A DNA stretch of 64,000 nt from Candidatus Nomurabacteria bacterium RIFCSPHIGHO2_02_40_30 (GCA_001785445.1 MFTV01000010.1:101566-165565), one strand, 5' to 3'; shown: positions 9,337 through 61,645, counted from the stretch's first letter. The notes: a model not told the origin generated them from the sequence alone. Numbers and translations: made by a program.

Positions 9337-11586
9337 TTATTTCATTTTGTTTAGTCTGTCTGGGCGATAGTTAGAACACTTATTACTACTACACCTTTCA
9401 GGTATAGTTTTTGTGCCTTCCATCATCAAAGACCCGCATTCTTTACAGACGTTGCCTGTAGGTTTGGCTTTGATGGCAAATTTACAGTCAGGGTAATTTG
9501 AACAAGAATAGAAAATTCCAAATCTTCCACGGCGCTCCGAAATGTCTCCCTTTTTACAAGTAGGGCAGATTACTCCAGTGCGTTTTTTTGCTTCTTCAGC
9601 CTCATCTTTCTTAATGAATTTACATTTTGGATAGCGAGAGCAAGAAATAAAGCTACCAGTGCCGTCTCGACGCTGTCGTATAACCAAAACCCCTTTTTCT
9701 TTCGGTTTACCTTTTTTTCCTGCCCCGTTGGAAGTACTCTTTCCTTCGGGGTCTCCACAATCAGGACACATTTCTCCGGTTTCTTTAGGGCCTTTTAATT
9801 CTGTGCCGTCAAGCATGAGGGCACCATCACAATCTGGATATTTGGAGCAAGAATAAAACTTACCTCCCCGTGAGAGTTTGATAATCATAGCGCTGCCACA
9901 TTTCGGACATTTCATATTCTCCGGAGCATCACCCAAGTTTGTAGCCTTTTCCAGCTTCTCTTTTGATTTTACGTCTTTAAGAAATGGTCCGTAAAAATCT
10001 TTCAATGTTTTCTCGTATTCGCGTTCACCTCGAGAAATTTCATCCAATTCATTTTCCATCTCAGCCGTAAAGCTATCAGATATATAACTCATAAAATGTT
10101 TCTCCAAGAAATCTGATACGACTTCACCTGTATCGGTGGGGAATAGTGTTTTACCTTCTTTGTTTACATAGCCTCTCTCTTCTATGGTCCTCATGATAGA
10201 CGCATAAGTAGACGGCCTGCCGATGTCTCTAGCCTCTAGTTCTTTGATTAAACCGGCTTCACTATATCTCCCTGGTGGCTCTGTAAACTTTTCTTCATTA
10301 TTTAGATCAAGTAACTTTAACTCTTCTCCAGTCTTGCAGATAGGCAATTCTACATCATCTCCGCGCGCGTCACTATCTATCGCGAGCCATCCTGGGAAAA
10401 GAAGCCGAGAGCCATTGGCAGTGAAGTCAGGTAATTCCTCATGCCCTTTTATCACCGCAGAAATTTTTGTTTTTAATAACTTTGCATCAGTCATCTGAGA
10501 AGAGATGGCTCGATCCCAAATTAGTCTATAGAGTCTGTCTTGGTCATCGCTACCAGCGGTAAGATTTTCTACATGTGTGGGACGAATAGCTTCGTGCGCT
10601 TCTTGAGCATTCTTGGATTTGGTTTTATAAATTCTGGCTTCAGCATATTCCTTGCCGTATTTTTTCTCCACGAAATTAATTATTTGAGTTTGCGCCACTG
10701 TGCCCAAGTTTGTACTGTCTGTTCGCATGTACGTTATATGTCCGGCTTCATAAAGTTTCTGCGCTATTTGCATTGTGCGTGAAGGGGAATAGCCGAGGCG
10801 TGAACTTGCAGTCTGCTGAAGAGTGGAGGTGGTAAATGGGGCGCGAGGGGAGCGTTTTTGCTCAGACTCTTTAACCGCACTTACAATCCAAGTGCCATTT
10901 TTTCCTTCAGTCATTATTTTCTCAACTAGTTTCGGGTCTCTCGGTTCTTCACTACACTCTAAAGTTATTTTGTCTCTCTTTATTGTTTCGAATAAACCAA
11001 ATATTCTCCAAAATTTTTCCGGAACAAAAGCTCGTATTTCTCTTTCTCGTTCCATAATTATACGCAATGCAGGAGACTGCACACGGCCAGCCGAGAGTCC
11101 GTAGCGTACCTTTTTCCAAATCAAACCAGAAAGGTCGTAACCAACGAGGCGATCTAATACTCGGCGCGCTTCTTGAGCTTTGCGTAAGTGAGTGTCTATT
11201 TTTCTCGGGTTTTGCAATGCTTCTTCTACGGCTTCTTTAGTTATCTCGTGAAAGGTGACTCGCGCTATCGGCGCTTTCACTTTTTTGTCTTGTTTCAAAA
11301 GTGTCTCTATGTGCCAAGCTATCGCTTCGCCTTCACGATCGGGGTCGGTAGCCAAAAGAACATCAGTCGCCTTTTCTGCCAACCCTTGCAGTTCGTGGAC
11401 AACTTTTTCTTTACCTTTAGAAACTTCGTAATGGGGGATAAAGCCACCTTCTATGTCGATGGCAATTTTATTTGATTTGGGTAAATCACGCACATGCCCC
11501 ACAGATGCGCGAACAGTAAATGCGCCTTCGAGATATTTCTCAATAGTTTTTGCTTTTGATGGTGATTCCACTATTAATAATTTCAT
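9337..11586 (-). CDS. topA: DNA topoisomerase I
   Basis: N-terminal Toprim 'MKLLIVESPSKAKTIEKYLEG' and several C-terminal Zn-ribbon CxxC...CxxC repeats. Confidence 0.9.
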   Translation of the reverse strand: MKLLIVESPSKAKTIEKYLEGAFTVRASVGHVRDLPKSNKIAIDIEGGFIPHYEVSKGKEKVVHELQGLAEKATDVLLATDPDREGEAIAWHIETLLKQDKKVKAPIARVTFHEITKEAVEEALQNPRKIDTHLRKAQEARRVLDRLVGYDLSGLIWKKVRYGLSAGRVQSPALRIIMEREREIRAFVPEKFWRIFGLFETIKRDKITLECSEEPRDPKLVEKIMTEGKNGTWIVSAVKESEQKRSPRAPFTTSTLQQTASSRLGYSPSRTMQIAQKLYEAGHITYMRTDSTNLGTVAQTQIINFVEKKYGKEYAEARIYKTKSKNAQEAHEAIRPTHVENLTAGSDDQDRLYRLIWDRAISSQMTDAKLLKTKISAVIKGHEELPDFTANGSRLLFPGWLAIDSDARGDDVELPICKTGEELKLLDLNNEEKFTEPPGRYSEAGLIKELEARDIGRPSTYASIMRTIEERGYVNKEGKTLFPTDTGEVVSDFLEKHFMSYISDSFTAEMENELDEISRGEREYEKTLKDFYGPFLKDVKSKEKLEKATNLGDAPENMKCPKCGSAMIIKLSRGGKFYSCSKYPDCDGALMLDGTELKGPKETGEMCPDCGDPEGKSTSNGAGKKGKPKEKGVLVIRQRRDGTGSFISCSRYPKCKFIKKDEAEEAKKRTGVICPTCKKGDISERRGRFGIFYSCSNYPDCKFAIKAKPTGNVCKECGSLMMEGTKTIPERCSSNKCSNYRPDRLNKMK

Positions 11587-45899: not shown

Positions 45900-45927
45900 A
45901 CATAATACATTACGTAATGTATTATGT
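45900..45927. promoter_or_regulatory. Perfect 28-bp palindrome centred on TTACGTAA, in the divergent rpmA / Ada-like promoter region
   Basis: acataatacaTTACGTAAtgtattatgt is its own reverse complement. The same core motif recurs at 61365-61398. Confidence 0.45.
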
Positions 45928-45946
45928 AACCAATATAGACTAATAT

Positions 45947-46339
45947 ATGGAAAAAATCAAGACATTCTTGGAAAGCGACAAGGGTAAAGACATAATGATA
46001 GTTACCATCGTCATTTTGGTGGGCTTAGGCTCATTTGAGCTAGGTAGACTATCTAAAGAAGGAAATGGCTCGAGGGGAGTCAAAATTGAGTATACGGAGG
46101 ACGTAAGTAATCAGCAAGCAGGGAATGTAATTTCAGCCATAGAATCTTCTAGTCTTTTGCAAAATACTGAAGTAGCAAATTCTGCTGGCAAAAACTTTTT
46201 TGCTTCCAACAGGGGAACTAAATATTATTCCATCGGCTGTTCAGCCGGCAAAACTATTAAGCAAGAAAACAGAGTCTACTTTGCAACAAGTGAAGCTGCC
46301 CAAAGGGCAGGGTATGAGCTTAGTAGCTCGTGTAGGTAA
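45947..46339 (+). CDS. Membrane-anchored protein with Ada-like Zn-binding (methylphosphotriester repair N-domain-like) domain
   Basis: C-terminal 'KYYSIGCSAGKTIKQENRVYFATSEAAQRAGYELSSSC' resembles the Ada N-terminal metal-binding domain pattern. One N-terminal TM helix. Confidence 0.45.
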   Translation: MEKIKTFLESDKGKDIMIVTIVILVGLGSFELGRLSKEGNGSRGVKIEYTEDVSNQQAGNVISAIESSSLLQNTEVANSAGKNFFASNRGTKYYSIGCSAGKTIKQENRVYFATSEAAQRAGYELSSSCR

Positions 46340-46452: not shown

Positions 46453-48348
46453 CTATGAGAAAAGCTTGAGGTCTTTCGTTAGCGCGTCTACTTTGGACTT
46501 AGGGCCAAAGATGAGGAGACCGAGGAAGTCGATATCTTTTTGCGACTTCATTTGAGTTTGCTCGGCAACTTTTTTATCATTTGTGGTTTCAATCATCTCT
46601 CGGGTAAAGTGAGCAATCTCTAAGCCCTCCCCTTGCGCCTTGTCAGAAAGCGCCCAAATGGCATCCGAAGAGTCGGCAGTCTTTATCATAATTGCATGCT
46701 GAATATTTAATTTTATATTTTTGTCATCTTTGGTTTTTATCGAATCAAATTTGAAAAGTTTTTTCTGTGAACGGGCGCCAAAAGCAGCTGATAGATGAGC
46801 TACGGTATTCATTATCTGCCATGGCTCCAGTCCGGCGCCGGAGTTTACTATGGCTGTAGCCACATACATTTCCTTAATTTTATTTTTCTCGTCGTCAATA
46901 GGTTTCATCAGTGGAAATATTTGGGTTTCTCGGATGGGTTTATCCATTAAGAAACTGAAAAGGCGTTCACTGAAGCCGTGGCCAGCGGTAGGAGGCATTC
47001 CGTACTCTAATGCCTCAACGAAGTCATGGTCCGTCATTTGGGCTTCGGTATCCCCTGCTTCACGCAACTTTTCTTGATCTCTAAATCGTTCTAGCTGGTC
47101 TATTGGGTCATTAAGTTCGCTATATCCTTGTCCCACTTCACTTCCAGCAATAATAAAATGAAAACGTTCTGTAACATCTGGATTATCAGGCGAAGACTTT
47201 GATAAAGGAGAAGTAATTTTAGGCTCATTTACCAGAATAGCTGGTCCGCCAATATTTTTACGGCAATGTTTCCATAAAGAATCAATCAAGCGCGCTTTAT
47301 TATCTGCTTCGTAGTCCACGCCTAATTCTTTTAACTTTATTTCGATTTCTTTTTGGTCTGCTTTTTCGATATTGATTTTCAATTGTTTCTCTATTTCTTT
47401 GGTATAATCTATAAGAGGCCACTCTAAAGCAAGGTCAACGTCAAAACCATTTATCTTAAATTTCAGGGTGCCGAAAGTTTCCTGCGCCACGTATCGGTAG
47501 CATTTCTGTAAAAATTTATACATATCTTCATAGTTAGCATAAGCCCAATAAGCTTCACATTGAGTATAGTCTTGCAAATGCTCCGGAGACATGCCTTCGT
47601 TGCGAAAAATTCTGCCGATTTCAAAAGTCTTCGGAATTCCGGCAACCATTAACTTTTTTTGCCAGAGTTCTCCTGCTGATATTCTAAGATAAACATCTAA
47701 GTCCAAAGCATTATGATGCGTTTTAAATGGTGTAGCATCTGCCCCTCCGGTAGTAATCTCTAAAACCGGTGTTTCCACCTCTAGAAAACCATTCTTCAGA
47801 TGAAATTCTCTGACAGCATTCCAAAAGAGAGCTTTTTTCCTTACTATTTCTTTGGCTTCAGGATTAAAAAGGATGTCTAGGTATCTCTGACGAAATCTAG
47901 TCTCGTAATCCTGCAAACCATGCCATTTTTCTGGTAGCGGTTTCAAGCTCTTAGAAAGCATATGCCAGTCTGTGGCCTCAAGAGTCTTCTCCCCTCTTTT
48001 GGTCGTAAAAAAATTTCCTTGAATCTCTACGAAGTCGCCAATATCCACAACTTCATTAAAGAAGTTAAACTTTTCGCCGCCCAAAACATCTTTTTTAAGC
48101 AAGCCCTGAAAAGTTCCGGTGCCGTCGTTTAAAGTTATAAAAATAATAGCGCCTTGTCCGCGTATAGACATAACACGTCCGGCAATCCATTTAATTTCTT
48201 TATTTTTTTCCAGAGTGTCAAAATTTAAAGTAGCCTCATGTAATGCAAGCTCTCTACTTGACTCTGCGGGATATGGATTTACACCTTTACTCTTCAAGAG
48301 CTCAAGTTTTTTTATTCTCGTATCTCTAATTTCATCAATTGAAGACAT
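46453..48348 (-). CDS. lysS: Lysyl-tRNA synthetase (class II) with ~150-aa C-terminal extra domain
   Basis: N-terminal OB anticodon-binding domain, class II motifs, canonical end '...RLFSFLMDKPIRETQIFPLMKP', then an additional ~150 aa. Confidence 0.85.
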   Translation of the reverse strand: MSSIDEIRDTRIKKLELLKSKGVNPYPAESSRELALHEATLNFDTLEKNKEIKWIAGRVMSIRGQGAIIFITLNDGTGTFQGLLKKDVLGGEKFNFFNEVVDIGDFVEIQGNFFTTKRGEKTLEATDWHMLSKSLKPLPEKWHGLQDYETRFRQRYLDILFNPEAKEIVRKKALFWNAVREFHLKNGFLEVETPVLEITTGGADATPFKTHHNALDLDVYLRISAGELWQKKLMVAGIPKTFEIGRIFRNEGMSPEHLQDYTQCEAYWAYANYEDMYKFLQKCYRYVAQETFGTLKFKINGFDVDLALEWPLIDYTKEIEKQLKINIEKADQKEIEIKLKELGVDYEADNKARLIDSLWKHCRKNIGGPAILVNEPKITSPLSKSSPDNPDVTERFHFIIAGSEVGQGYSELNDPIDQLERFRDQEKLREAGDTEAQMTDHDFVEALEYGMPPTAGHGFSERLFSFLMDKPIRETQIFPLMKPIDDEKNKIKEMYVATAIVNSGAGLEPWQIMNTVAHLSAAFGARSQKKLFKFDSIKTKDDKNIKLNIQHAIMIKTADSSDAIWALSDKAQGEGLEIAHFTREMIETTNDKKVAEQTQMKSQKDIDFLGLLIFGPKSKVDALTKDLKLFS

Positions 48349-48357
48349 TTTTAATTT

Positions 48358-48825
48358 TTAGGACACACTTATTATTTTATAATTAACTAGTCCGTTAGGA
48401 GTTTTAAAAGATATTTTATCACCTTTTCTCCTGCCAAAAAGCGCTTCGCCAAACGGAGACCGGTTAGAAATTTTACCTTCGGCCATGCTAGCCTCTTCAG
48501 AGCCTACGATAGTATAAGTTTTTGTTTCCTTACTTCTCTCTTTTTGCACGACTACTTTAGAACCAACCTCTACCACTTCCCCACCTCCGCCACTCACCGT
48601 CTGTGAAGACTGCAAAATTTGTTCTATTTTTGTAATTCTCTCTTCGAGCTTGCCCTGATCTTCGCGAGTCTGATGATATTCCGCATTTTCCGACAAGTCA
48701 CCCAATGATTTCGCGTACTCCAAAGCTTCCAAAATTTCTTTTCTTTTCGGTCCTTTTAATTCTTTCAGCTCTATTTCCAACGCATGCCTTTTCTCTTTAG
48801 TTATATAGTCTCCCGCTTGCTGCAT
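48358..48825 (-). CDS. greA: Transcription elongation factor GreA
   Basis: Motif 'LGDLSENAEYHQTREDQGKLEERI' and FKBP-like C-domain. Confidence 0.85.
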   Translation of the reverse strand: MQQAGDYITKEKRHALEIELKELKGPKRKEILEALEYAKSLGDLSENAEYHQTREDQGKLEERITKIEQILQSSQTVSGGGGEVVEVGSKVVVQKERSKETKTYTIVGSEEASMAEGKISNRSPFGEALFGRRKGDKISFKTPNGLVNYKIISVS

Positions 48826-48862
48826 AATCTTATAATCTTATATTTTTTTAGCCAAAAGTCAA

Positions 48863-50044
48863 TTAAATTGAGCGTAAAATACCATTTTTGCCTATTAAAA
48901 TTTCACGTGGCAGTTCTCTGCTATTGTAGCGTGAAGCCATTACATAGCCATAAGCACCTGAATTTTTAATAGCCAGAACATCTCCGACCTTTGGTTTGCT
49001 GATCTTTCTGTCTCTGCCGAAAACATCTCCGGATTCACATATATTTCCGGCTACATCAACTTTTATAATTGCTCCTTTAATTTTGTTTGCATTTATGATT
49101 TCGTGATGAGAACCATACATGGCAGGACGAAGTAAATGATTAAAGCCTGTGTTTATTCCTACAAAAGTACGTTTTGGATTTGTTTTTATCTCGGTAACAT
49201 TGGCCAATAAGGTTCCTGCTTCAGCAACCAAGAATCTTCCGGGCTCTAGAATCATATTCAACTCTCGGCCGTATATTTTGGAAAAATTATTCATTTTTCT
49301 TGTCATTTCTTGTCCTAATAATTTTAAATTTAAATTTTTATCTTTCGGTAAATAAGGAATACCTAATCCCCCGCCGAAATCCAACGATTCCAGTTCGGAA
49401 AAATCTTTTGCCGTCTCAAGCAACTTATCGAAGGCTTTTAGTAAAATTTTACTATCCAGAACATTGGAACCAATATGCTGATGCAAGCTGACAATTTGTA
49501 ATTTATATTTTTTCGCCAATTTTTTAGCTTGTGACAAGTGTTCGAGAGGAATTCCAAACTTGCTCATAACTCCTCCGGTAATGACATGGCTATGGTGCCC
49601 AGCACCGATACCTTGATTTATGCGTATACCGATTTTGCCATTTGGATTCAACTTTCCATACAGCTCAATTTGTGACAAAGAATCCAGATTAACTTTAATG
49701 TTATTTTTTATCACAAAAACCATTTCTTCTTCGGTTACCGAACTCGAAGTATATAAAATATCTTTAGATTTAAAACCGACCTTCAGTGCTGAAGTTATTT
49801 CTCCCCTACTCACTGTTTCTATCTTTGCTCCCAAGTGTAGTAATAACTTCAAAATAGAAATATTTGTGTTTGCTTTGCAGGCATAGTGTATATGAAACTT
49901 GTGATATAGCATATTTTTTATTAATTCCAAATACCTTTGCCTGATAACATCAGCTTCGTAAACATATAAAGGTGTGCCAAATTTTTTGGCCAACGTAGTG
50001 GAAGAATACTTTCCAAAATATAATTTATTATTCTTAGTATGCAT
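48863..50044 (-). CDS. lysA: Diaminopimelate decarboxylase (fold-III PLP enzyme)
   Basis: PLP-lysine region 'YACKANTNISILKLL'; the 'GGGLGIP' and 'ESGD' motifs are consistent with alanine-racemase-fold decarboxylases. Sits in a lysine biosynthesis context. Confidence 0.75.
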   Translation of the reverse strand: MHTKNNKLYFGKYSSTTLAKKFGTPLYVYEADVIRQRYLELIKNMLYHKFHIHYACKANTNISILKLLLHLGAKIETVSRGEITSALKVGFKSKDILYTSSSVTEEEMVFVIKNNIKVNLDSLSQIELYGKLNPNGKIGIRINQGIGAGHHSHVITGGVMSKFGIPLEHLSQAKKLAKKYKLQIVSLHQHIGSNVLDSKILLKAFDKLLETAKDFSELESLDFGGGLGIPYLPKDKNLNLKLLGQEMTRKMNNFSKIYGRELNMILEPGRFLVAEAGTLLANVTEIKTNPKRTFVGINTGFNHLLRPAMYGSHHEIINANKIKGAIIKVDVAGNICESGDVFGRDRKISKPKVGDVLAIKNSGAYGYVMASRYNSRELPREILIGKNGILRSI

Positions 50045-50139
50045 ACTGCAAATATATCAGCCTTGTTTGTGAAAGTTAATTTTTTTAACGTTTATGTAAT
50101 AAATTAGACTTTTTGTAAAATCTGTGATATTATTAAACA

Positions 50140-50799
50140 ATGATAAAAATTCAGCCTATTGTAAGGAATATAGTTATGAGTGAGCTCGAAGCCTATGTGG
50201 CATTAACCAACGGCTACATGAATATGAGCAGTTATGCGCACAGAATACGTCCCCTAGTGGAAGAACATGCCAAAAAACAAGTAACCATTACCAGCCTCGT
50301 AGTTTCCTTATCGCGCCTGCGTAAAGAGTTTAAAAAAGAAAAGCCACTTATTCAAGAAGTTGTCATCGCTAATATCACTACCAAGCTGCCGCTGACAGAC
50401 ATTGTGTATGAAAATACTGACAGCATAATTAGCAAACTCGAGTCCTTTCATAAAAAAATTTCTATTTCACGTGAAGATTTTTTCACTACCACTATAAGTA
50501 CCACTGAACTCAATATTATTTGTTCATCGAACATTGCTGGCAAGGTATTAAAACATTTCGGCATCAAGCCAAAGTTCACTGCGCAGAATCTGGCGGCAGT
50601 CGGCATCTCATTCAGTGAAAAACAATTCACTATTCCAAATACACTTTTTTCTTTATATTCCGTCATCGCCCGAGCGCGTATCAACATCATTGAAGTGGTC
50701 TCGACATATACAGAACTAATTTTCATCATCGAAGAAAAAAACTTCAGCCAAACCGTAGCCCTATTTTCCGAACTGCACCGGAAAGTAAACAGAGAATAA
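50140..50799 (+). CDS. Stand-alone ACT-domain protein (aspartokinase regulatory-domain-like), paralog A
   Basis: C-terminal 'PNTLFSLYSVIARARINIIEVVSTYTELIFIIEEKNFSQTVALFSELH' fits the aspartokinase ACT pattern. About 60% identical to the 56572-57237 product. Confidence 0.5.
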   Translation: MIKIQPIVRNIVMSELEAYVALTNGYMNMSSYAHRIRPLVEEHAKKQVTITSLVVSLSRLRKEFKKEKPLIQEVVIANITTKLPLTDIVYENTDSIISKLESFHKKISISREDFFTTTISTTELNIICSSNIAGKVLKHFGIKPKFTAQNLAAVGISFSEKQFTIPNTLFSLYSVIARARINIIEVVSTYTELIFIIEEKNFSQTVALFSELHRKVNRE

Positions 50800-50945
50800 A
50801 ATCTACCATCTCGAACATATGTAAAAGATAGTAGATAGTTGTGAATTTACGCATATGCGTGATTTCACAACAAAAATGTTTAAGTATTACTAATACAATA
50901 GCAACGGCCGTGGTTATTGTGATAATAACAATAATATTAAATTAA

Positions 50946-51740
50946 TTAGACCACTTCCACTATACCGCTGAAAACGGACACGGCGGGGCCGCGCATGATT
51001 ATGTCGCCTTGTTCGTTTTCAGACATATATAATTTTCCGCCCGGTAATTCTATGATGAGTTCTACATCAGCGTTTTTATATTTCCTAGCTGCCGCGTACA
51101 CTGCGCAGGCTCCTGTACCACAGGCAAGAGTCGCCCCGCATCCCCTCTCCCAGACTTTTACTTTAAATTCGTTAGAACTTTTTTGCTCCACAAACTCAAC
51201 ATTTATTTTATTTGGAAAAATTTTATTGTTTTCTATCTTAGGACCCAGTGTAGGTAAGTCATATTTGTCCAAATCTTTTACAAAAGTTATGGCATGTGGG
51301 TTGCCGACAGAAACAAAATTAAAATCGAATCCTTCTAATTTTGTATTTTTATCCGGAAAATCTGTGTGCACAAAAACAGCTTTCCCCATATTTACCGAAA
51401 AAGTATGGTCATCATTATATTTTATTTCTTTTGTACCTGCGCGTGTATCTATTGTAAATTTAGTTTTATTTTTTGAAAAATTGTCTTTCAAAAATTTTGC
51501 TACACAGCGCACACCGTTTCCGCACATCTCGGCTAGTGTTCCATCAGAATTATAATAATTCATAAAGCAGTCCCCTTTTTCTGAAGATTCAACTAAAATA
51601 ACGCCATCACCTCCTATGCCTTTATTTCTGTCACAGAGAAAAATAATTTGCTCTTTTGATAAAACAATTTTCCCATTTATATTATCAATGACTACAAAGT
51701 CGTTCCCCAGTCCATGCATTTTTGTAAAGCCTATATTCAT
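50946..51740 (-). CDS. dapF: Diaminopimelate epimerase
   Basis: Motif 'FTKMHGLGNDFVVID' and two catalytic Cys regions. Confidence 0.85.
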   Translation of the reverse strand: MNIGFTKMHGLGNDFVVIDNINGKIVLSKEQIIFLCDRNKGIGGDGVILVESSEKGDCFMNYYNSDGTLAEMCGNGVRCVAKFLKDNFSKNKTKFTIDTRAGTKEIKYNDDHTFSVNMGKAVFVHTDFPDKNTKLEGFDFNFVSVGNPHAITFVKDLDKYDLPTLGPKIENNKIFPNKINVEFVEQKSSNEFKVKVWERGCGATLACGTGACAVYAAARKYKNADVELIIELPGGKLYMSENEQGDIIMRGPAVSVFSGIVEVV

Positions 51741-52639
51741 ATATGTATTAAAGTTCCTTCAGATTCTAAGTCCCAAAACGGCCTTACTTGCAGAGGAATT
51801 TTTTTCTCTTTTACTTCCCTTAAAGTTTTCGGATGTACCAAGCCAACAGCATTAAACTCCAAATGTTTTTCAAAATCGTCATAGGTTATAAAATCTATTT
51901 TTTGGACATTTTCATTGCCGGCTAGTTTGGGATTTTTGTCCATAACCCCCGGCACATCTTTCCAAAGAACTACTTTGCTCGCATTCATAAGATTGCCCAG
52001 AATCCCCGCAGTGTAGTCGCTACCCTCGCGTCCCAGAGTCGTCATGCCTTCTTCGCAAAAACCGATAAATCCCTCGGTGACAATGTTTTTATGCGTAATA
52101 AATATTTCTTCTTTTATTTGTACTTTTAGATTTTCATTGGTGGCTTTTTTATCAACATTCGCGATATTAAAATTCGAATCTGTCTTGAGGAAATCAGTCG
52201 CATGGACAAGCTTGTTTTTTATACCAACATGAGAAAGGTATTCGCTGGCAACCAAAGAGCTCAATATTTCCCCATAGGGAACAATTTGGTCATAAATAAA
52301 CTTTTTATCTTCGCCTCGCCCTATTAAATACAGTCTCTCTTGCATCTTTTTAAAAAGATCTTCAATTATGCCGAAGGTCACATGCCCCTCGGGAAAAAGA
52401 TCTCGCGCAATTTCCAAATGAAAAGCTTTTAATTCATGCATTATCTTGCTACTTTCATTGGTGTCTCCACTCGCATAATTATGTAATATTTTTTCTAAGT
52501 TGTTTGTGGTCTTGCCAAAAGCGGAAAATACATTCATGGAATTTCCATGAATGTGCTTCTCGAAAGTTTTCGGCAAATGTCTGATGGCTTTAGCACTACT
52601 CATAATTCCGCCACCAAATTTGTTTATAATTAAGGACAT
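51737..52639 (-). CDS. lysC: Aspartokinase, catalytic amino-acid-kinase domain only (no ACT domains)
   Basis: Motifs 'INKFGGGIMSS' and 'LGREGSDYTAG'. Ends '...EGTLIHI' where ACT domains normally begin. Start placed at 52639 (MSLIINKFGG) to avoid overlapping asd. Confidence 0.8.
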   Translation of the reverse strand: MSLIINKFGGGIMSSAKAIRHLPKTFEKHIHGNSMNVFSAFGKTTNNLEKILHNYASGDTNESSKIMHELKAFHLEIARDLFPEGHVTFGIIEDLFKKMQERLYLIGRGEDKKFIYDQIVPYGEILSSLVASEYLSHVGIKNKLVHATDFLKTDSNFNIANVDKKATNENLKVQIKEEIFITHKNIVTEGFIGFCEEGMTTLGREGSDYTAGILGNLMNASKVVLWKDVPGVMDKNPKLAGNENVQKIDFITYDDFEKHLEFNAVGLVHPKTLREVKEKKIPLQVRPFWDLESEGTLIHI

Positions 52640-52643
52640 AATT

Positions 52644-53651
52644 TTATATAAGGTTATTATTACACAAGTACTCGGCAATCTGCACTGCATTCGTGGCAGC
52701 GCCTTTGCGCAGATTGTCCGCCACGATCCACATATTTAGGGTTTTAGGATTTGATTCGTCACGGCGGAGCCTGCCGACAAAAACTTCATCCTTTCCTTCT
52801 GCATATATGGGCATGGGATATTTTAAATTCTGCACATCGTCTACAACCACAACTCCAGGCATTTCGGAAAGTAATGACCTTACTTTTTCCAGATCATATT
52901 CTTCTTTGAACTCCACATTCACTGACTCCGAATGCCCGCCGATAACTGGAATCCGAACAGCAGTGGTAGTTATACATATGCTTTCATCACCTAAAATTTT
53001 TCTGGTTTCATTTTCCATTTTCATTTCTTCTTTGGTGTAGCCGTTTGGAAGAAAAATGTCAACTTGGGGAATTAAATTTAAGTCAATCGGGTAGGCATAC
53101 GCCATCTCACCCTCTACTCCTCTCCTTTCATTCATGAGCTGGTCCACTGCGCCTTTCCCTGTACCGGTAACTGACTGATAGGTGGAGACAACTATTCTTT
53201 TTATTCCAAACTCTTTATGGAGCGGATAAAGCGCGAGAACCAATTGCGTCGTCGAACAATTCGGTTTGGCAATAATTTTGTCTTCTTTGGTTAAAATACT
53301 GCCATTTACCTCAGGTATTATAATTTTTTTAGAAGGATCCAGCCTCCACGCCGAAGAACTATCAATCACTATTGCGCCAGCTTCCACGAAAAATGGAGCC
53401 CACTCCAGAGATACTGCCGAACCAGCGGAAAAAAAAGCGATGTCCGGCTTCCCTGCTAGCGCATCTTCGATGGAGATGATTTTATGCGACACTCCGTTAA
53501 AAGTTATTTCTTTGCCAACTGATTTTTGGCTTGCTATTGGAAGCAACTCTGAAACAGGAAAATTTCTTTCTTCCAAGATTTTTAGTATAGTCCTGCCGAC
53601 AAGACCGGACGCTCCAATTATTGCAACTTTTTTCTTATTATTATTTAGCAT
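52644..53651 (-). CDS. asd: Aspartate-semialdehyde dehydrogenase
   Basis: Motif 'VAIIGASGLVGRTILKIL' and catalytic Cys region 'KPNCSTTQLVLAL'. Confidence 0.85.
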   Translation of the reverse strand: MLNNNKKKVAIIGASGLVGRTILKILEERNFPVSELLPIASQKSVGKEITFNGVSHKIISIEDALAGKPDIAFFSAGSAVSLEWAPFFVEAGAIVIDSSSAWRLDPSKKIIIPEVNGSILTKEDKIIAKPNCSTTQLVLALYPLHKEFGIKRIVVSTYQSVTGTGKGAVDQLMNERRGVEGEMAYAYPIDLNLIPQVDIFLPNGYTKEEMKMENETRKILGDESICITTTAVRIPVIGGHSESVNVEFKEEYDLEKVRSLLSEMPGVVVVDDVQNLKYPMPIYAEGKDEVFVGRLRRDESNPKTLNMWIVADNLRKGAATNAVQIAEYLCNNNLI

Positions 53652-54883
53652 TATAATTTTAAATTCTTTTGTATACTTTTAACCGCTTTTATTATATTTT
53701 CTCTGTGCCCGAAAGCAGTCAAACGCAAATAGCTCTCCCCTTCGGAGCCAAAACCAGAGCCGGGCGTACCCACAACATATGCTTCTTCCAATAATTTGTT
53801 AAAAAACTGCAAAGAACTTAAATTACGCGGAGTTTTAACCCAGATATATGGCGCATGTTCTCCGCCAAAAACTTTCAAGCCAAGTTTCTGTAAAGCTTTC
53901 TTTATGAGCATCGCATTTTTCATATAGTAACCAACTAAATTTTTACTTTCTTTTTGACCGGCAGGTGATAAAACCGCCAAGGCGCCTTCTTGAGATATAT
54001 TAGACGCTCCATTGAACATAGTGCCCTGCCGTCTGCTCCACAAACCGTTAACTATGCCTTTTTTTGTCTTTTCAATAACTAAATCCATCGGCACTACCGT
54101 CCACCCTAATCGCACACCCGTAAACCCCGCCCACTTGGAAAAACTATTAACTTCTATGGCGCACTTTTTGGCTCCGGGTATTTCGTAGATGCTTTTTGGT
54201 AAAGATTTGTTTGATATGTATTCGACGTAAGTGGCATCGAAAATTATTACCGCTTTGTTCTTTAGAGCATAATCTACAAAAGCTTTTAATTGCTTTCTTG
54301 TAGCGGCAGAGCCGGTAGGGTTATTGGGATTACAAAGATAAATTATATCCACTTTTTGTTTTGGAGGGTTTGGCACAAAATTATTTTTTTCATTACATGC
54401 CATATACACCAGGCCTTGATATTTTCCGTTGACGCATTTTCCAGTCCTACCTGATATAACCGCAGTATCTAAATATGCCGGATACACAGGGTCCGAAATT
54501 GCTACGACATTATTCAAACTAAATATTGACTGTATATTTGCCAAGTCTGTTTTGGCTCCATCATTGATAAAAATTTCTTGCATCCTCAAGCTAATGTTTC
54601 TTTTTTTATAAAAATTCACCAACGCAGTTAATAGTCTCAAATTCCCCTCTTTGCCTTCGGCGTCTTGGTAGCCTATATATGTTTTAACGTTCCCAAGCCT
54701 TTTTACTCCTTCGTGCAATCCTTTAATGACGGTAGGAGTTAAAGGCTCTGTGGTATCACCAACTCCGAGCTTTAGAACCTCTACACTGGGATTTTTTTTC
54801 ATAAACTCCTGCGTCAGTTTGGAAACCTCGCCAAATAAATATCCTTTTTGCAATTTATTGTAATTTTTATTAATGGTGGCCAT
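53651..54883 (-). CDS. dapL: LL-diaminopimelate aminotransferase
   Basis: Class I aminotransferase with N-terminal 'KLQKGYLFGEV', characteristic of DapL. PLP-lysine region 'SFSKWAGFTGVRLGW'. Confidence 0.7.
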   Translation of the reverse strand: MATINKNYNKLQKGYLFGEVSKLTQEFMKKNPSVEVLKLGVGDTTEPLTPTVIKGLHEGVKRLGNVKTYIGYQDAEGKEGNLRLLTALVNFYKKRNISLRMQEIFINDGAKTDLANIQSIFSLNNVVAISDPVYPAYLDTAVISGRTGKCVNGKYQGLVYMACNEKNNFVPNPPKQKVDIIYLCNPNNPTGSAATRKQLKAFVDYALKNKAVIIFDATYVEYISNKSLPKSIYEIPGAKKCAIEVNSFSKWAGFTGVRLGWTVVPMDLVIEKTKKGIVNGLWSRRQGTMFNGASNISQEGALAVLSPAGQKESKNLVGYYMKNAMLIKKALQKLGLKVFGGEHAPYIWVKTPRNLSSLQFFNKLLEEAYVVGTPGSGFGSEGESYLRLTAFGHRENIIKAVKSIQKNLKL

Positions 54884-54885
54884 TA

Positions 54886-55797
54886 TTATTTTATCAACTT
54901 TAACTCTTTCAAGACTTTCTCTATGATAGGCCTATTTTTTTCTTCGATAAAAGTTAACGGCAATCTGAAACTTTCTGTGATAAGCCCCATTTGGGCCAGA
55001 GCCGTCTTTACCGGAATGGGATTAGACTCGATAAAGTTAACATTCATCAAGTCAAGAAGTTTATAGTGTAATTTCTTTGCTTCTTCTAATTTACCTTTGA
55101 GAGCGCAGTGAATCATGTCAGAAAATAATTTTGGGGTCTCGTTACAGACCACAGAAATACAGCCTTTGCCTCCAAGAGCAATAAGAGGCAATGCCAAGGC
55201 ATCATCACCAGATAGAACGACAAAGTTTTTAAGATTTTTGGAACCGTTTTTTGCTTCGTTTATAATTTCCATCATCTGGTTTAATGAACCGGAGGCTTCT
55301 TTGACTGCTACAACTTTTGGCACTTCTCGCGCTATTTTGATAATAGCTCCCGGCTGTATATTAGAACCGGTTCTCCCGGGAACATTGTAAATAATGATAG
55401 GCAGATTCACAGCTTTTGAGATTGCTTTAAAGTGAAGCACCAGACCGGCAGGAGTCGGCTTGTTGTAGTAAGGCGTTACGTGAAGCAGACCGTCCACTCC
55501 GGCGGACTTGGCCAGCTTAGAAAAGTGAATCGCTTTTTTAGTATCATTGGAACCGGCTCCGGCAATGACCGGAATTCTTCCTGCAACTTTTTTTACTACT
55601 GTTTTTACAACAGTAATATATTCTTCATCGTTGAGCGTAGCTGCTTCTCCAGTGGAGCCGGCAACCACAATGCCATCCACTCCGCCTTTGAGCTGATATT
55701 CAACCAACTTCTCCAATGCCGGTAAATCCAAATCTCCATTTTTCTTAAATGGTGTGACTATTGCCGGAATTGAGCCAAAAAATTTTATTTTTTTCAT
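54886..55797 (-). CDS. dapA: 4-hydroxy-tetrahydrodipicolinate synthase
   Basis: Motif 'GSIPAIVTPF' and Schiff-base Lys region. Start placed at MKKIKFFG (55797), giving no overlap with dapB. Confidence 0.85.
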   Translation of the reverse strand: MKKIKFFGSIPAIVTPFKKNGDLDLPALEKLVEYQLKGGVDGIVVAGSTGEAATLNDEEYITVVKTVVKKVAGRIPVIAGAGSNDTKKAIHFSKLAKSAGVDGLLHVTPYYNKPTPAGLVLHFKAISKAVNLPIIIYNVPGRTGSNIQPGAIIKIAREVPKVVAVKEASGSLNQMMEIINEAKNGSKNLKNFVVLSGDDALALPLIALGGKGCISVVCNETPKLFSDMIHCALKGKLEEAKKLHYKLLDLMNVNFIESNPIPVKTALAQMGLITESFRLPLTFIEEKNRPIIEKVLKELKLIK

Positions 55798-55798
55798 T

Positions 55799-56476
55799 TT
55801 ATATTTTGAATAAATGTTCAAAAGGATACATCCCTTTTTTGTTACTAATAAATTTGGTAGCTAATAATGCCCCTTTGGCAAATCCCATTCTACTGTATGC
55901 TTGATGAGAAAATGTGATGCCATCAGCGACGCTGTCGAACACCACTTCGTGGAAACCTGGGTTTCTGCCCGCACGAATTGAAGTAAAGTTTAATCCATTG
56001 ACTTTGCTCGCAATTTTCAAGGCAGTACCGGAAGGACTGTCGAGCTTGGCTTTGTGGTGAACTTCCAGCCCATACACATCATAATCCGGAAATTTAGCAA
56101 AAAGCGAAGAGGCAAAATCCATTATCTTGAAAAATATATTTACTCCCACCGAAAAATTCGGACTGTAGACTAAACCTATTTTATTTTTGCTGACTAATTT
56201 TTTTACGGTATCCATTTTGTCATACCACCCAGTGGTGCCTATGACCATATTCACGCCGAGCTTTCCTACTTGCTCTATATTCTTTATAACCACATCCGGT
56301 GAAGTAAAGTCTATGGCAACATCTGCTTTTTTAATACCTTCTACGTCCAGCTTGTCATTTATATTTTTATAACTCACTGAAACCACTTCAAAATCTCGAG
56401 AATCTTCACATAGAGCATTCACTTCTTTACCCATTTTTCCAAAGCCAATTAAGGCAATTTTTATTCTACTTTTCAT
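55799..56476 (-). CDS. dapB: 4-hydroxy-tetrahydrodipicolinate reductase
   Basis: Motif 'IKIALIGFGKMGKEV' and 'EVHHKAKLDSPSGTA'. Confidence 0.8.
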   Translation of the reverse strand: MKSRIKIALIGFGKMGKEVNALCEDSRDFEVVSVSYKNINDKLDVEGIKKADVAIDFTSPDVVIKNIEQVGKLGVNMVIGTTGWYDKMDTVKKLVSKNKIGLVYSPNFSVGVNIFFKIMDFASSLFAKFPDYDVYGLEVHHKAKLDSPSGTALKIASKVNGLNFTSIRAGRNPGFHEVVFDSVADGITFSHQAYSRMGFAKGALLATKFISNKKGMYPFEHLFKI

Positions 56477-56571
56477 TTATATATAGGATAACAAGTATAT
56501 TAGTAGAAGTTAAATTTTTTAACATTAACACTGTTATTGCAACTTTTTGTTAAATCTATTAGAATATCAGC

Positions 56572-57237
56572 ATGATAAAAATACAGTCAGCTGTGCGAGA
56601 TATAGTGCTAGAAGAAATAGAGGCTTATTTTGCCCTAACCAACGGCTACATGAATATGAGCAGTTATGCGTACCGGATAAAGTCAAAGGTAGAGTTACTC
56701 ACAAAAAAGCACACAACTATAGCGAGTTTGGTGGTTTCCCTCTCCCGCCTTGCGAAAGAACTGAAAAAAGAGAGACCGCTGATACATAAAGTAGCAATAA
56801 AAAATATTACTACCAAACTTCCACTCACGGAGATAGCTTATGAAAATAGTACCAAATTCATTGAGAAGTTGGAATCATTGCATAAAAATATTTCTGTATC
56901 TGCAGAAGACTTTTTTACTACAACTATTGGCACCACAGAAATCGATATTATTTGCTCGTCTAATCTGGAGGCTAAAATTTTGAAACATTTCACTATGAAA
57001 CCGAAGTGGGTAAACCATAACTTTGCCGCCATCGGAGTTTCTTACGGTCCGGAAGTTTTCGGCACTCCAAATGTTTTTTTCTCCCTTCTCTCGGTAACTG
57101 CTCGCGCCCGCATCAACATAGAAGAGCTGGTCTCCACGCCCACCGAGCTCATCTTCATCGTGGCCGAAGCTGACTTCGGCAGAACCGTGGCTCTGTTTTC
57201 AGAGTTGCACAGAGAAGTAAACAATGATAACCTATAA
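56572..57237 (+). CDS. Stand-alone ACT-domain protein (aspartokinase regulatory-domain-like), paralog B
   Basis: Same architecture as the 50140-50799 product. Shares an identical 34-nt stretch 'aaccaacggctacatgaatatgagcagttatgcg'. Confidence 0.5.
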   Translation: MIKIQSAVRDIVLEEIEAYFALTNGYMNMSSYAYRIKSKVELLTKKHTTIASLVVSLSRLAKELKKERPLIHKVAIKNITTKLPLTEIAYENSTKFIEKLESLHKNISVSAEDFFTTTIGTTEIDIICSSNLEAKILKHFTMKPKWVNHNFAAIGVSYGPEVFGTPNVFFSLLSVTARARINIEELVSTPTELIFIVAEADFGRTVALFSELHREVNNDNL

Positions 57238-61420: not shown

Positions 61421-61448
61421 TTGACAGGTTTAGATAAAAGCATAAACT
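61421..61448 (+). promoter_or_regulatory. Putative sigma70 promoter for the cobalamin-riboswitch operon
   Basis: TTGACA at 61421-61426, 16-nt spacer, TAAACT at 61443-61448. Confidence 0.4.
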
Positions 61449-61464
61449 TAGTATGTTCCTTTAA

Positions 61465-61645
61465 TAATTTAAAAGAAGTGATTGGGGAAACTGGTTAGAT
61501 TCCAGTACAGTGCCGCTACGGTAAGCCCACGACTTTGTGTCGGGGACAAGTCCGATTACCAATCATTTTTGTTTTTCCCGAGCAGGATATCCTCTTTCGT
61601 TTTTTTACGAAAAAGACTGTAAATTCTGCCCGCAGCAGGATTTTT
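61465..61645 (+). ncRNA. Cobalamin (B12) riboswitch
   Basis: Core 'GGGGAAACTGGTTAGATTCCAGTACAGTGCCGCTACGGTAAGC' matches the cobalamin riboswitch consensus. 'GACAAGTCCGATTACC' is a B12-box-like element. Sits in the 5' leader of a DUF4430 gene; the AGGA RBS is 10 nt before the ATG. Confidence 0.6.

Follow-up and report, generated by a model that had tools for sequence, protein, structure and literature searches.

The locus analysed here raises the question of how lysine synthesis could be regulated in a bacterium whose aspartokinase has lost its regulatory ACT domains, and of what two paralogous genes flanking the lysine operon contribute to this regulation. In the window, that is the whole 64,000-nt stretch from Candidatus Nomurabacteria bacterium RIFCSPHIGHO2_02_40_30, the genes concerned are arranged as follows:

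50140-50799, plus strand: parA, 219 aa, A-type paralog
56572-57237, plus strand: parB, 221 aa, B-type paralog, with the architecture of parA
50946-56476, minus strand: dapB-dapA-dapL-asd-lysC-dapF operon (LL-DAP aminotransferase route)
55799-56476, minus strand: dapB
54886-55821, minus strand: dapA
53651-54883, minus strand: dapL (TIGR03542, 531 bits)
52644-53651, minus strand: asd
51737-52690, minus strand: lysC, aspartokinase catalytic domain only
50946-51740, minus strand: dapF
46453-50044, minus strand: lysA-greA-lysS apparent operon, divergent from parA
48863-50044, minus strand: lysA, ATG at 50044
48358-48825, minus strand: greA
46453-48348, minus strand: lysS-DUF2000

Every enzyme of the dap/lysC operon was confirmed with Pfam and NCBIfam. 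parA is divergent from lysA(-greA-lysS), whose genes are separated by 37 and 9 nt, and parB is divergent from the dap/lysC operon; these two operons are their presumed targets. All ORFs, including the paralogs flanking the lysine operon on the opposite strand, lie where the original prediction had placed them.

The lysC product has 317 aa when counted from the first ATG; its start is likely Met18, at 52639, which gives 300 aa. In Pfam, LysC matches AA_kinase (PF00696) alone (97.9 bits). NCBIfam aspartokinase models align to it over their N-terminal ~290 positions only, and it falls below all cut-offs of the full-length models because the C-terminal ACT domains are absent. Its alignment to M. 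jannaschii aspartokinase (3c1m) covers residues 4-298, includes the aspartokinase signatures KFGG and GREGSDYTA (GRxGSDY type), and stops exactly at the start of the 3c1m ACT domains, the C-terminus of LysC being EGTLIHI. As had been claimed, C-terminal ACT regulatory domains were found in LysC neither with Pfam or NCBIfam nor in the 3c1m alignment. The overlap of the lysC stop with the start of dapF leaves no space in which a lost ACT region could lie, and LysC orthologs in related genomes are likewise short (291-338 aa). The closest full-length relatives of LysC are Bacteroidota-type aspartokinases; it is 37-41% identical to 416-aa aspartokinases.

An aspartokinase-type tandem ACT module is found instead in Par, at residues ~76-219. 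parB matches positions 226-403 of the TIGR00656 aspartokinase model (E 0.0011), and sequence profiles together with fold searches, which used the whole chain and were dominated by the ACT module, show a sensor that is specifically aspartokinase-like and not a generic ACT. It is homologous to the tandem ACT module of alpha2beta2-type aspartokinase beta subunits, so that the predicted ACT-like nature of the paralogs' C-termini holds. The proposed profile check gave a mixed outcome: 66 of the 119 family members match ACT_7 (PF13840) at E<0.01 (best 4.4e-8), but its gathering threshold of 27 bits is missed by both window proteins (parA, 17.9 bits; parB, no match). Stand-alone tandem ACT_7 proteins (1zvp, 1zhv) are among the structural neighbours of Par. 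No similarity was detected between the Par ACT module and the C-terminus of the Bacteroidota-type aspartokinases closest to LysC. As the module is beta-subunit-like and unlike that C-terminus, it is unlikely to have arisen simply by fission of this lysC.

Par is not made of ACT domains only. Residues 1-65 form a separate, basic, non-ACT domain, for which structure prediction confidently models four helices; the original prediction had missed it. This domain contains an HTH-like motif, A21-x3-G25-x-L-N-x-S-A-Y-A-x2-I36, plus K46 and the invariant R59. In an alignment of 119 sequences, its near-invariant columns are N28, A33, I36, K46, L57 and R59, those of the ACT part being only P166 and E192; judging from this alignment, conservation across the family is highest in the N-terminal domain. 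When 60 N-terminal fragments were searched, none of the known DNA-binding families was matched significantly: there were only weak matches, to DUF7523 from seven fragments (best E 0.0021), to ThermoDBP-RP_arch from four and to GntR from one. Among full-length members, 5 of 119 match DUF7523 (best E 1.3e-5), whereas Pfam gave no such match for ParA, ParB or a Bathyarchaeia relative, and a sequence search of the PDB returned nothing for this domain.

The lack of significant similarity to known DNA-binding domains, and the presence of 1zvp and 1zhv among the structural neighbours, would fit ACT proteins that bind a small molecule and act by contacting a further regulator or an enzyme, much as GcvR, itself a tandem-ACT protein, acts on GcvA by protein-protein contact. 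Any palindromes at the par promoters would then be promoter elements, UP elements or sites for another factor. That the most conserved region is the basic N-terminal domain and not the ACT part argues against it, and the upstream regions also bear on it. They contain the following elements, the promoters being putative ones from a promoter scan:

50105-50133, plus strand: putative parA promoter, TAGACT-17-TATTAT, with a preceding TG
50051-50079, minus strand: putative lysA promoter, TTAACT-17-TATATT, with a preceding TG
56537-56565, plus strand: putative parB promoter, TTGCAA-17-TAGAAT
56494-56522, minus strand: putative dapB-operon promoter, TTAAAA-17-TATACT
50114-50129, unstranded: O1-A, candidate operator TGTAAAATCTGTGATA, extending over the parA promoter spacer and -10
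56548-56563, unstranded: O1-B, candidate operator TGTTAAATCTATTAGA, overlapping the parB promoter spacer and -10
50075-50089, unstranded: O2-A, palindrome GTTAATTTTTTTAAC, overlapping the -35 hexamer of the lysA promoter
56509-56523, unstranded: O2-B, palindrome GTTAAATTTTTTAAC, overlapping the -35 hexamer of the dapB promoter

In the putative parA promoter, the end of the -10 lies 6 nt ahead of the ATG, which would make the parA mRNA leaderless or close to it. The same distance separates the putative -10 from the ATG of parB and of lysA (at 50044), and the layout of the par promoters is kept in related loci. Of the two divergent promoters, the putative dapB-operon one is weaker. O1-A ends 10 nt before the parA ATG, and O1-B, which matches the family palindrome at 11 of 14 positions, ends 8 nt before that of parB. 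This family palindrome is a 16-bp element, TGTAATA-N2-TATTACA (Paceibacteria form, TGTAAAATCTGTTAGA), that overlaps the gene's own promoter family-wide. Among 67 unique upstream regions from Paceibacteria, 61 have an O1-like site, the homologous TTTTTGTAAAATCTGTTAGAAT. In 367 kb around distant members (26-46% identical), TGTAATANNTATTACA occurs 37 times at a stringency of at least 12/14 positions, with 35 copies at most 100 nt upstream of a family gene start and 27 at most 12 nt. Palindromes and genomes are both AT-rich. In the window, the generic consensus of the family does not stand out. The motif enclosing O1, CTTTTTGTWAAATCTRT, has copies without mismatch only at parA and at 56543 in the 64 kb.

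O2-A and O2-B each start 39 nt upstream of their O1. GTTAA-N5-TTAAC occurs twice in the 64 kb, for 0.16 copies expected, and in this window both O2 and the motif enclosing O1 are unique to the two par promoters. O2 is kept in 50 of 67 related upstream regions, and its 39-nt offset from O1 is fixed in 44 of 46. It may be a second operator, but could equally be a UP element or the -35 of the divergent promoter. Its resemblance to an AT-rich UP element and its overlap with promoter hexamers speak for the contact hypothesis, and O1 and O2 could be bound by another protein. However, the palindrome follows the gene across lineages at 26-46% protein identity and with differing neighbours, and its dyad symmetry and position are kept while the -35/-10 hexamers shift by ~10 bp between lineages. 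As its place holds while the hexamers shift, it appears to be conserved for something beyond promoter function. We consequently consider action by protein-protein contacts alone to be unlikely.

Our results also bear on the view, put forward in the original prediction, that the paralogs are detached allosteric subunits of LysC. Par belongs to an uncharacterised family common in ultra-small (CPR) bacteria, with ~1290 clusters at 50% identity, CPR-wide; its close relatives alone make up >120 clusters at 90% identity, vs ~39 for the ACT-less LysC clade. Some members are annotated as 'aspartokinase' by one source. In other Paceibacteria, the A-type gene pairs with lysA and the B-type gene with the dap operon, the same operon being divergent from B-type genes in other genomes. 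The B-type gene adjoins a lysC-containing operon in about 14 genomes, and two loci (L042 and L049) have it directly divergent from lysC-dapF. Elsewhere, the divergent neighbour of close B-type orthologs (72-84% identity) is a cysteine-synthase/CBS-like (cysK-like) gene; this holds at 18 loci of as many species, and lysC is absent within 10 kb of them. Other members are divergent from (i) dapB-dapA alone (for a 27-31%-identical member), (ii) SSAT-like GNAT acetyltransferases, (iii) a GNAT plus histone-deacetylase-family gene pair, (iv) class I LysRS, or (v) argG-argH, for an archaeal relative. Within +/-10 kb or on single contigs, aspartokinase is usually absent near par-family genes. Such a divergent arrangement, with varied operons of a common metabolic theme, is typical of a divergently transcribed regulator.

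According to the subunit view, the paralogs would dock on the ACT-less LysC, with the N-terminal domain as docking module, and confer sensitivity to Lys, Thr or DAP; they would correspond to the LysC beta subunit, but encoded in trans. The specifically aspartokinase-like sensor (including its TIGR00656 match), the loss of ACT domains by this lineage's aspartokinase, the parB-lysC neighbourhoods and the 'aspartokinase' annotation all speak for it. Nevertheless, co-transcription of par genes with lysC was seen neither in the window nor in related genomes, parA is linked to lysA instead, the cysK-like neighbourhoods have no lysC within 10 kb, and distant members adjoin GNAT genes, LysRS or dapBA alone. 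Beta subunits, moreover, pair with ACT domains of the alpha chain, which this LysC does not have, and the Par ACT module is unlike the C-terminus of its closest full-length relatives. With an additional N-terminal domain, divergent genes, a family much larger than the ACT-less LysC clade and a family-specific palindrome on its own promoter that this view leaves unexplained, we regard it as a decidedly unlikely account.

Concerning the two paralogs themselves, an ungapped alignment of ParA and ParB over 219 aa shows 66% identity (E 2e-105), and their DNA is 65% identical; their paralogy is thus as proposed, at a higher identity than the ~60% given. They also share an identical stretch, of 35 nt and not 34:

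50204-50238 and 56636-56670, plus strand: stretch identical between parA and parB

It codes for (L)TNGYMNMSSYA, the turn and the start of the putative recognition helix, and encodes the most conserved motif of the family, LTNGYMNMSSYA. The gene conversion that it was thought to betray finds weak evidence here: for 9 identical synonymous codons in a row, p is about 0.03, but this is the most conserved motif, and orthologs of other genomes use nearly the same codons for it. A- and B-type orthologs coexist in other Paceibacteria and, from these comparisons, the duplication is old and conserved, so that two effector specificities, as originally suggested, can still be envisaged.

Altogether, our preferred reading, to which we give a probability of roughly 0.6, is that ParA and ParB are autoregulated one-component transcription factors with an aspartokinase-like sensor, responding to lysine or a related ligand. 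Par would dimerise via its ACT module, as aspartokinase beta subunits do, and the dimer would bind the 16-bp palindrome O1 over its own, probably leaderless, promoter, and probably also O2, 39 bp upstream, over the -35 of the divergent promoter. An amino-acid effector bound at the ACT interfaces would change the affinity of Par for DNA; judging from gene context, L-lysine is the most likely one, or else a closely related compound such as DAP. ParA would control lysA(-greA-lysS) and ParB dapB-dapA-dapL-asd-lysC-dapF, the sign of this regulation presumably being that of an end-product control, exerted at transcription for a pathway whose aspartokinase lost its own allosteric domain.

A further model would have Par as a dual-function 'trigger' regulator: a DNA-binding repressor that, once loaded with lysine, also binds and inhibits LysC or is titrated by it, as TnrA and GlnR interact with glutamine synthetase in Bacillus. 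It would couple enzyme feedback and transcription, and it unites the aspartokinase-derived sensor and the loss of the kinase ACT domains with the operator-like palindromes and the divergent synteny. Most family members, however, are not near an aspartokinase, and a plain transcription factor is the more parsimonious model; we regard this one as very unlikely. Just as speculative is the evolutionary scenario in which, in Patescibacteria, the allosteric module of aspartokinase moved off the enzyme to become the sensor of a dedicated transcription-factor family, feedback on lysine synthesis being shifted by this from allostery to transcription. Such a factor, in the strongest version, once lysine-loaded, would also dock on the ACT-less aspartokinase and inhibit it in trans. 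One protein would then provide both enzyme-level and gene-level feedback, and the A and B paralogs might heterodimerise or sense different end products.

These proteins can finally be compared with known systems. LysC is, like the Thermococcales ACT-less aspartokinases (TIGR02078 'AspKin_pair', PRK08373), an amino-acid-kinase domain only, and it matches these models at E 1e-18 to 1e-26, below their cut-offs; it is nevertheless closer to AKIII-/Bacteroidota-type enzymes and is not encoded as an adjacent pair. The stand-alone tandem ACT_7 proteins (VC0802, 1zvp; Atu0741, 1zhv) and the arginine sensors CASTOR1/2 are, unlike Par, without an N-terminal helical domain and, to our knowledge, make protein-protein contacts or have no assigned function. 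DUF7523, for which we know of no assigned function either, is the only Pfam family repeatedly touching the Par N-terminal domain, through weak matches from a minority of members, none of them from the window proteins or the Bathyarchaeia relative.

The tandem ACT fold of Par has its homologue in the regulatory C-terminus of aspartokinase, which forms the beta subunit (LysC-beta) of the alpha2beta2 enzymes of C. glutamicum (3aaw/3ab4), T. thermophilus (2dt9/2zho), M. tuberculosis (3s1t/4go5) and P. aeruginosa (5yei). LysC-beta is translated from an internal lysC start, is identical to the ACT module of the alpha chain, without any extra domain, and pairs with it in the alpha2beta2 enzyme (3aaw, 5yei). 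In contrast, the par genes are separate, on the opposite strand and divergently transcribed, Par has a 65-residue N-terminal helical domain, and the kinase has no ACT module for pairing.

The other comparison is with transcription factors that have an ACT-type sensor, namely Lrp/AsnC (HTH plus RAM), NikR (ribbon-helix-helix plus ACT-like) and TyrR/PhhR (N-terminal ACT). Profile searches with the window proteins, the 119 members and the 60 N-terminal fragments found no sequence similarity of Par to these regulators. Its N-terminal domain is an unclassified four-helix one with weak DUF7523 similarity only, and its sensor is an aspartokinase-type double ACT (ACT_7/ACT_9), unlike the single RAM or NikR-type domain of Lrp/AsnC and NikR. 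Par would nonetheless resemble all of them in the fusion of a small DNA-binding domain, here a putative one, to a dimerising ACT-type sensor. Autoregulation, which we propose for Par too, is found in these regulators, among them LysM of Sulfolobus, a lysine-responsive member of the Lrp type, and their genes frequently lie divergent from operons for amino-acid biosynthesis, as the par genes do here.

The paralogous genes parA (A-type) and parB (B-type) flank dapF, lysC, asd, dapL, dapA and dapB, all on the minus strand, with lysA, greA and lysS further left. The open reading frames and gene order of the original prediction are confirmed in the window, as is the observation that the two paralogs enclose the operon of an aspartokinase devoid of ACT domains. 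Every lysine-pathway enzyme is confirmed by Pfam and NCBIfam, the LL-DAP aminotransferase matching TIGR03542 with 531 bits.

50140-50799, plus strand: parA, its product sharing 100% identity with a hypothetical protein from strain RIFCSPLOWO2_02_40_28
56572-57237, plus strand: parB
50045-50139 and 56477-56571: intergenic regions upstream of parA and parB, 95 bp each
46453-48348, minus strand: class II lysyl-tRNA synthetase with a fused C-terminal DUF2000 (residues 506-630), apparently the closing gene of an operon, lysA-greA-lysS (intergenic distances 37 and 9 nt), that runs divergently from parA
45900-45927: perfect 28-nt intergenic palindrome ACATAATACATTACGTAATGTATTATGT; on one side lies an L27-like ORF of the minus strand, on the other a 130-aa ORF (45947-46339) carrying an Ada zinc-binding domain

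The absence of ACT domains from the aspartokinase is real. The amino-acid-kinase domain is the sole match in LysC, and its alignment with the M. jannaschii aspartokinase reaches residue 298, where the ACT domains of the latter begin. As the lysC stop overlaps the dapF start, no hidden ACT remnant is possible there, and the LysC orthologs of related genomes are likewise about 300 aa long. The closest full-length relatives are Bacteroidota aspartokinases of ~416 aa (37-41% identity).

The 25-kDa Par proteins are, for their part, truly homologous to the regulatory module of aspartokinases: their ACT module resembles the beta subunits of the alpha2beta2 type, and TIGR00656 is also matched, although all matches obtained with single sequences (Pfam, NCBIfam, PDB) are sub-threshold. 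From such a resemblance, the Par proteins had been read as detached allosteric subunits of a split aspartokinase. The homology and the ACT-less kinase on which this reading was built both stand, but the detached subunit is not the best interpretation. At the profile level, no similarity was found between the ACT module and the C-terminal part of the Bacteroidota-type aspartokinases nearest to LysC, which argues, if weakly, against a simple fission of lysC. The par family also exceeds the clade of ACT-less LysC, with more than 120 clusters (90% identity) at least 67% identical to parA versus about 39 clusters in that clade. The whole family amounts to ~1290 clusters at 50% identity, labelled "hypothetical" or misannotated "aspartokinase".

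The neighbours of par genes point in the same direction. In other Paceibacteria, B-type orthologs are found divergent from the dap/lysC operon; A-type orthologs diverge from lysA, with several genes between them and lysC. Among the 71 species-level loci of the synteny sample, 18 carry a B-type ortholog (72-84% identical to parB) divergent from a cysteine-synthase/CBS-like gene (L016, L019, L020, L027, L029, L030, L033, L038, L039, L043, L044, L048, L054, L056, L057, L061, L065 and L069); no lysC lies within 10 kb on either side at these loci, and dapF often follows that gene. The neighbour encodes a PLP enzyme of ~305 aa (cysteine-synthase/cystathionine-beta-synthase-like) on the minus strand, just upstream of position ~10001. 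More distant members (26-46% identical, one identified as Dojkabacteria) are divergent from (i) dapB-dapA alone, (ii) SSAT-like GNAT acetyltransferases of the thialysine/diamine type, (iii) a GNAT and histone-deacetylase-family pair, or (iv) a class I lysyl-tRNA synthetase. The cysteine-synthase/CBS-like and SSAT-like neighbours suggest a theme of lysine analogues or diamines, and divergence from such varied operons argues for a family of regulators with a lysine/diamine theme rather than for an enzyme subunit. Separately, a Bathyarchaeia relative (L071, 5968-6639, plus strand; 25% identical, alike in length and architecture) diverges from argG-argH and is preceded by an inverted repeat of its own, TTTTTGG-N10-CCAAAAA, so that other amino acids may also be sensed within the family. 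In several Paceibacteria (L001, 7414-7977; L003, 10715-11278; L007), the gene directly 3' of the B-type paralog codes for a 187-aa PaaX_M-domain protein; no such gene directly follows parB in the window.

Both par intergenic regions share two elements, the candidate operator O1 at the par promoter and the palindrome O2 nearer the divergent gene. Consensus promoter scans place putative promoters around them:

50109 and 56543: motif CTTTTTGTWAAATCTRT, enclosing O1, without mismatch at these two window sites only
50075-50089 and 56509-56523: O2, GTTAA-N5-TTAAC, the only two sites in 64 kb versus 0.16 expected
parA putative promoter: TAGACT-17-TATTAT
parB putative promoter: TTGCAA-17-TAGAAT
lysA putative promoter, opposite strand: TTAACT-17-TATATT
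dapB putative promoter, opposite strand: TTAAAA-17-TATACT

O1 spans the spacer and -10 of the putative par promoter, and O2 overlaps the -35 of the divergent one. Over 67 unique upstream regions, the Paceibacteria consensus reads aAaGTtAAnTTTTTTAACATT ... TTtngACTtTTTGTaAAATcTGTTAgAATa, then 5-7 nt, then ATG; an O1-like element is present in 61 and an O2-like element in 50 of them, and of 46 O2-to-O1 offsets, 44 are exactly 39 nt. Distant members have the homologous element as a clear dyad, TGTAATA-N2-TATTACA, that lies directly against the start codon. A generic inverted-repeat score over the last 40 nt upstream did no better than on shuffled AT-rich DNA and was replaced by a motif-specific scan: in 367 kb of distant-member loci, the dyad is matched 37 times with no fewer than 12 of its 14 positions; 35 of these matches lie upstream of a family gene at a distance of at most 100 nt, and 27 at most 12 nt away. 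There the -35/-10 hexamers are displaced by ~10 bp relative to the palindrome, which argues that the dyad is kept for a reason other than recognition by RNA polymerase.

A role at the RNA level was also considered. As an RNA hairpin, the Paceibacteria palindrome would be too degenerate (10-11 of 14 positions), with a loop of only 2 nt, and regulation of the lysine operon by RNA was set aside, since no lysine riboswitch or other Rfam family is found near it. A cobalamin riboswitch aptamer (RF00174; its 36.6 bits exceed the gathering score) lies at 61437-61581 on the plus strand of the window. For parA, parB and lysA, the -10-like hexamer ends 6 nt before the ATG, suggesting leaderless mRNAs, and no Shine-Dalgarno sequence is present. 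In seven Paceibacteria genomes (L017, L022, L024, L045, L054, L062 and L064; upstream of the family gene, ~9900-10000), a segment of ~80 nt with a hairpin (GTCCCGTAC...TACGGGA) separates the conserved promoter and operator from the start codon, so that transcripts of these copies would carry a long leader and not be leaderless.

Conservation within the Par proteins is concentrated in the basic N-terminal domain, where most near-invariant columns lie (N28, A33, I36, K46, L57 and the invariant R59), with only P166 and E192 in the ACT part. The structure model used was built on a 119-sequence alignment (an earlier, poor 24-sequence model, pLDDT 62, was discarded). In the sequence of the N-terminal domain, helices 2 and 3 are linked by an Ala-x3-Gly-hydrophobic pattern that we read as reminiscent of a helix-turn-helix. 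Pfam searches with 60 N-terminal fragments gave weak matches to DUF7523, ThermoDBP-RP and GntR, which are hints only; profile search of this domain found no PDB match, the BFVD fold search, made with the whole chain, retrieved giant-virus ACT proteins only, and literature searches found nothing on the par family or DUF7523. The 35 nt identical in parA and parB encode the most conserved motif, (L)TNGYMNMSSYA, i.e., the turn and the start of helix 3. Elsewhere, 42% of shared-residue codons are identical, and a run of nine identical synonymous codons has a probability of about 0.03. Gene conversion had been proposed for this stretch, but in the orthologs of other genomes the nucleotides of this stretch are almost the same; conversion is thus unproven and unneeded, and selection together with codon preference explains most of the identity.

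A dyad travelling with its gene and a small basic helical domain as the most conserved part are the signature of an autoregulator. We therefore propose, with a confidence of about 0.6, that par genes form a new family, found across the CPR, of autoregulated transcription factors with an aspartokinase-type sensor for lysine or a related ligand. DNA binding, the ligand and the sign of regulation are what we infer, and a Par-LysC contact would stand on the same footing. The recurrent contexts (lysA, dap operon, lysyl-tRNA synthetase, lysine/diamine-type acetyltransferases) suggest lysine or one of its close analogues. As ParA and ParB differ mostly in their ACT part, two effector specificities could exist; their nearly identical putative recognition helices could allow cross-binding or heterodimers.

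CPR/Patescibacteria have few recognisable transcription factors and, to our knowledge, almost nothing is known of their gene regulation. The present analysis defines the par family and the domain architecture of its proteins, together with a candidate operator (TGTAATA-N2-TATTACA) and a plausible class of ligand, and warns against annotating par genes as aspartokinase subunits. A Par dimer would bind O1, and probably also O2 four helical turns away, repressing its own promoter and controlling the divergent one, while an amino-acid effector at the ACT interfaces would shift the equilibrium; lysA-greA-lysS would be under the control of parA, and the dap-lysC operon under that of parB. Dimerization could occur via the ACT module, in the manner of aspartokinase beta subunits, and Par would then be a concrete example of the allosteric module of an enzyme being reused as the sensor of a transcription factor, in a lineage where the enzyme itself has lost it.
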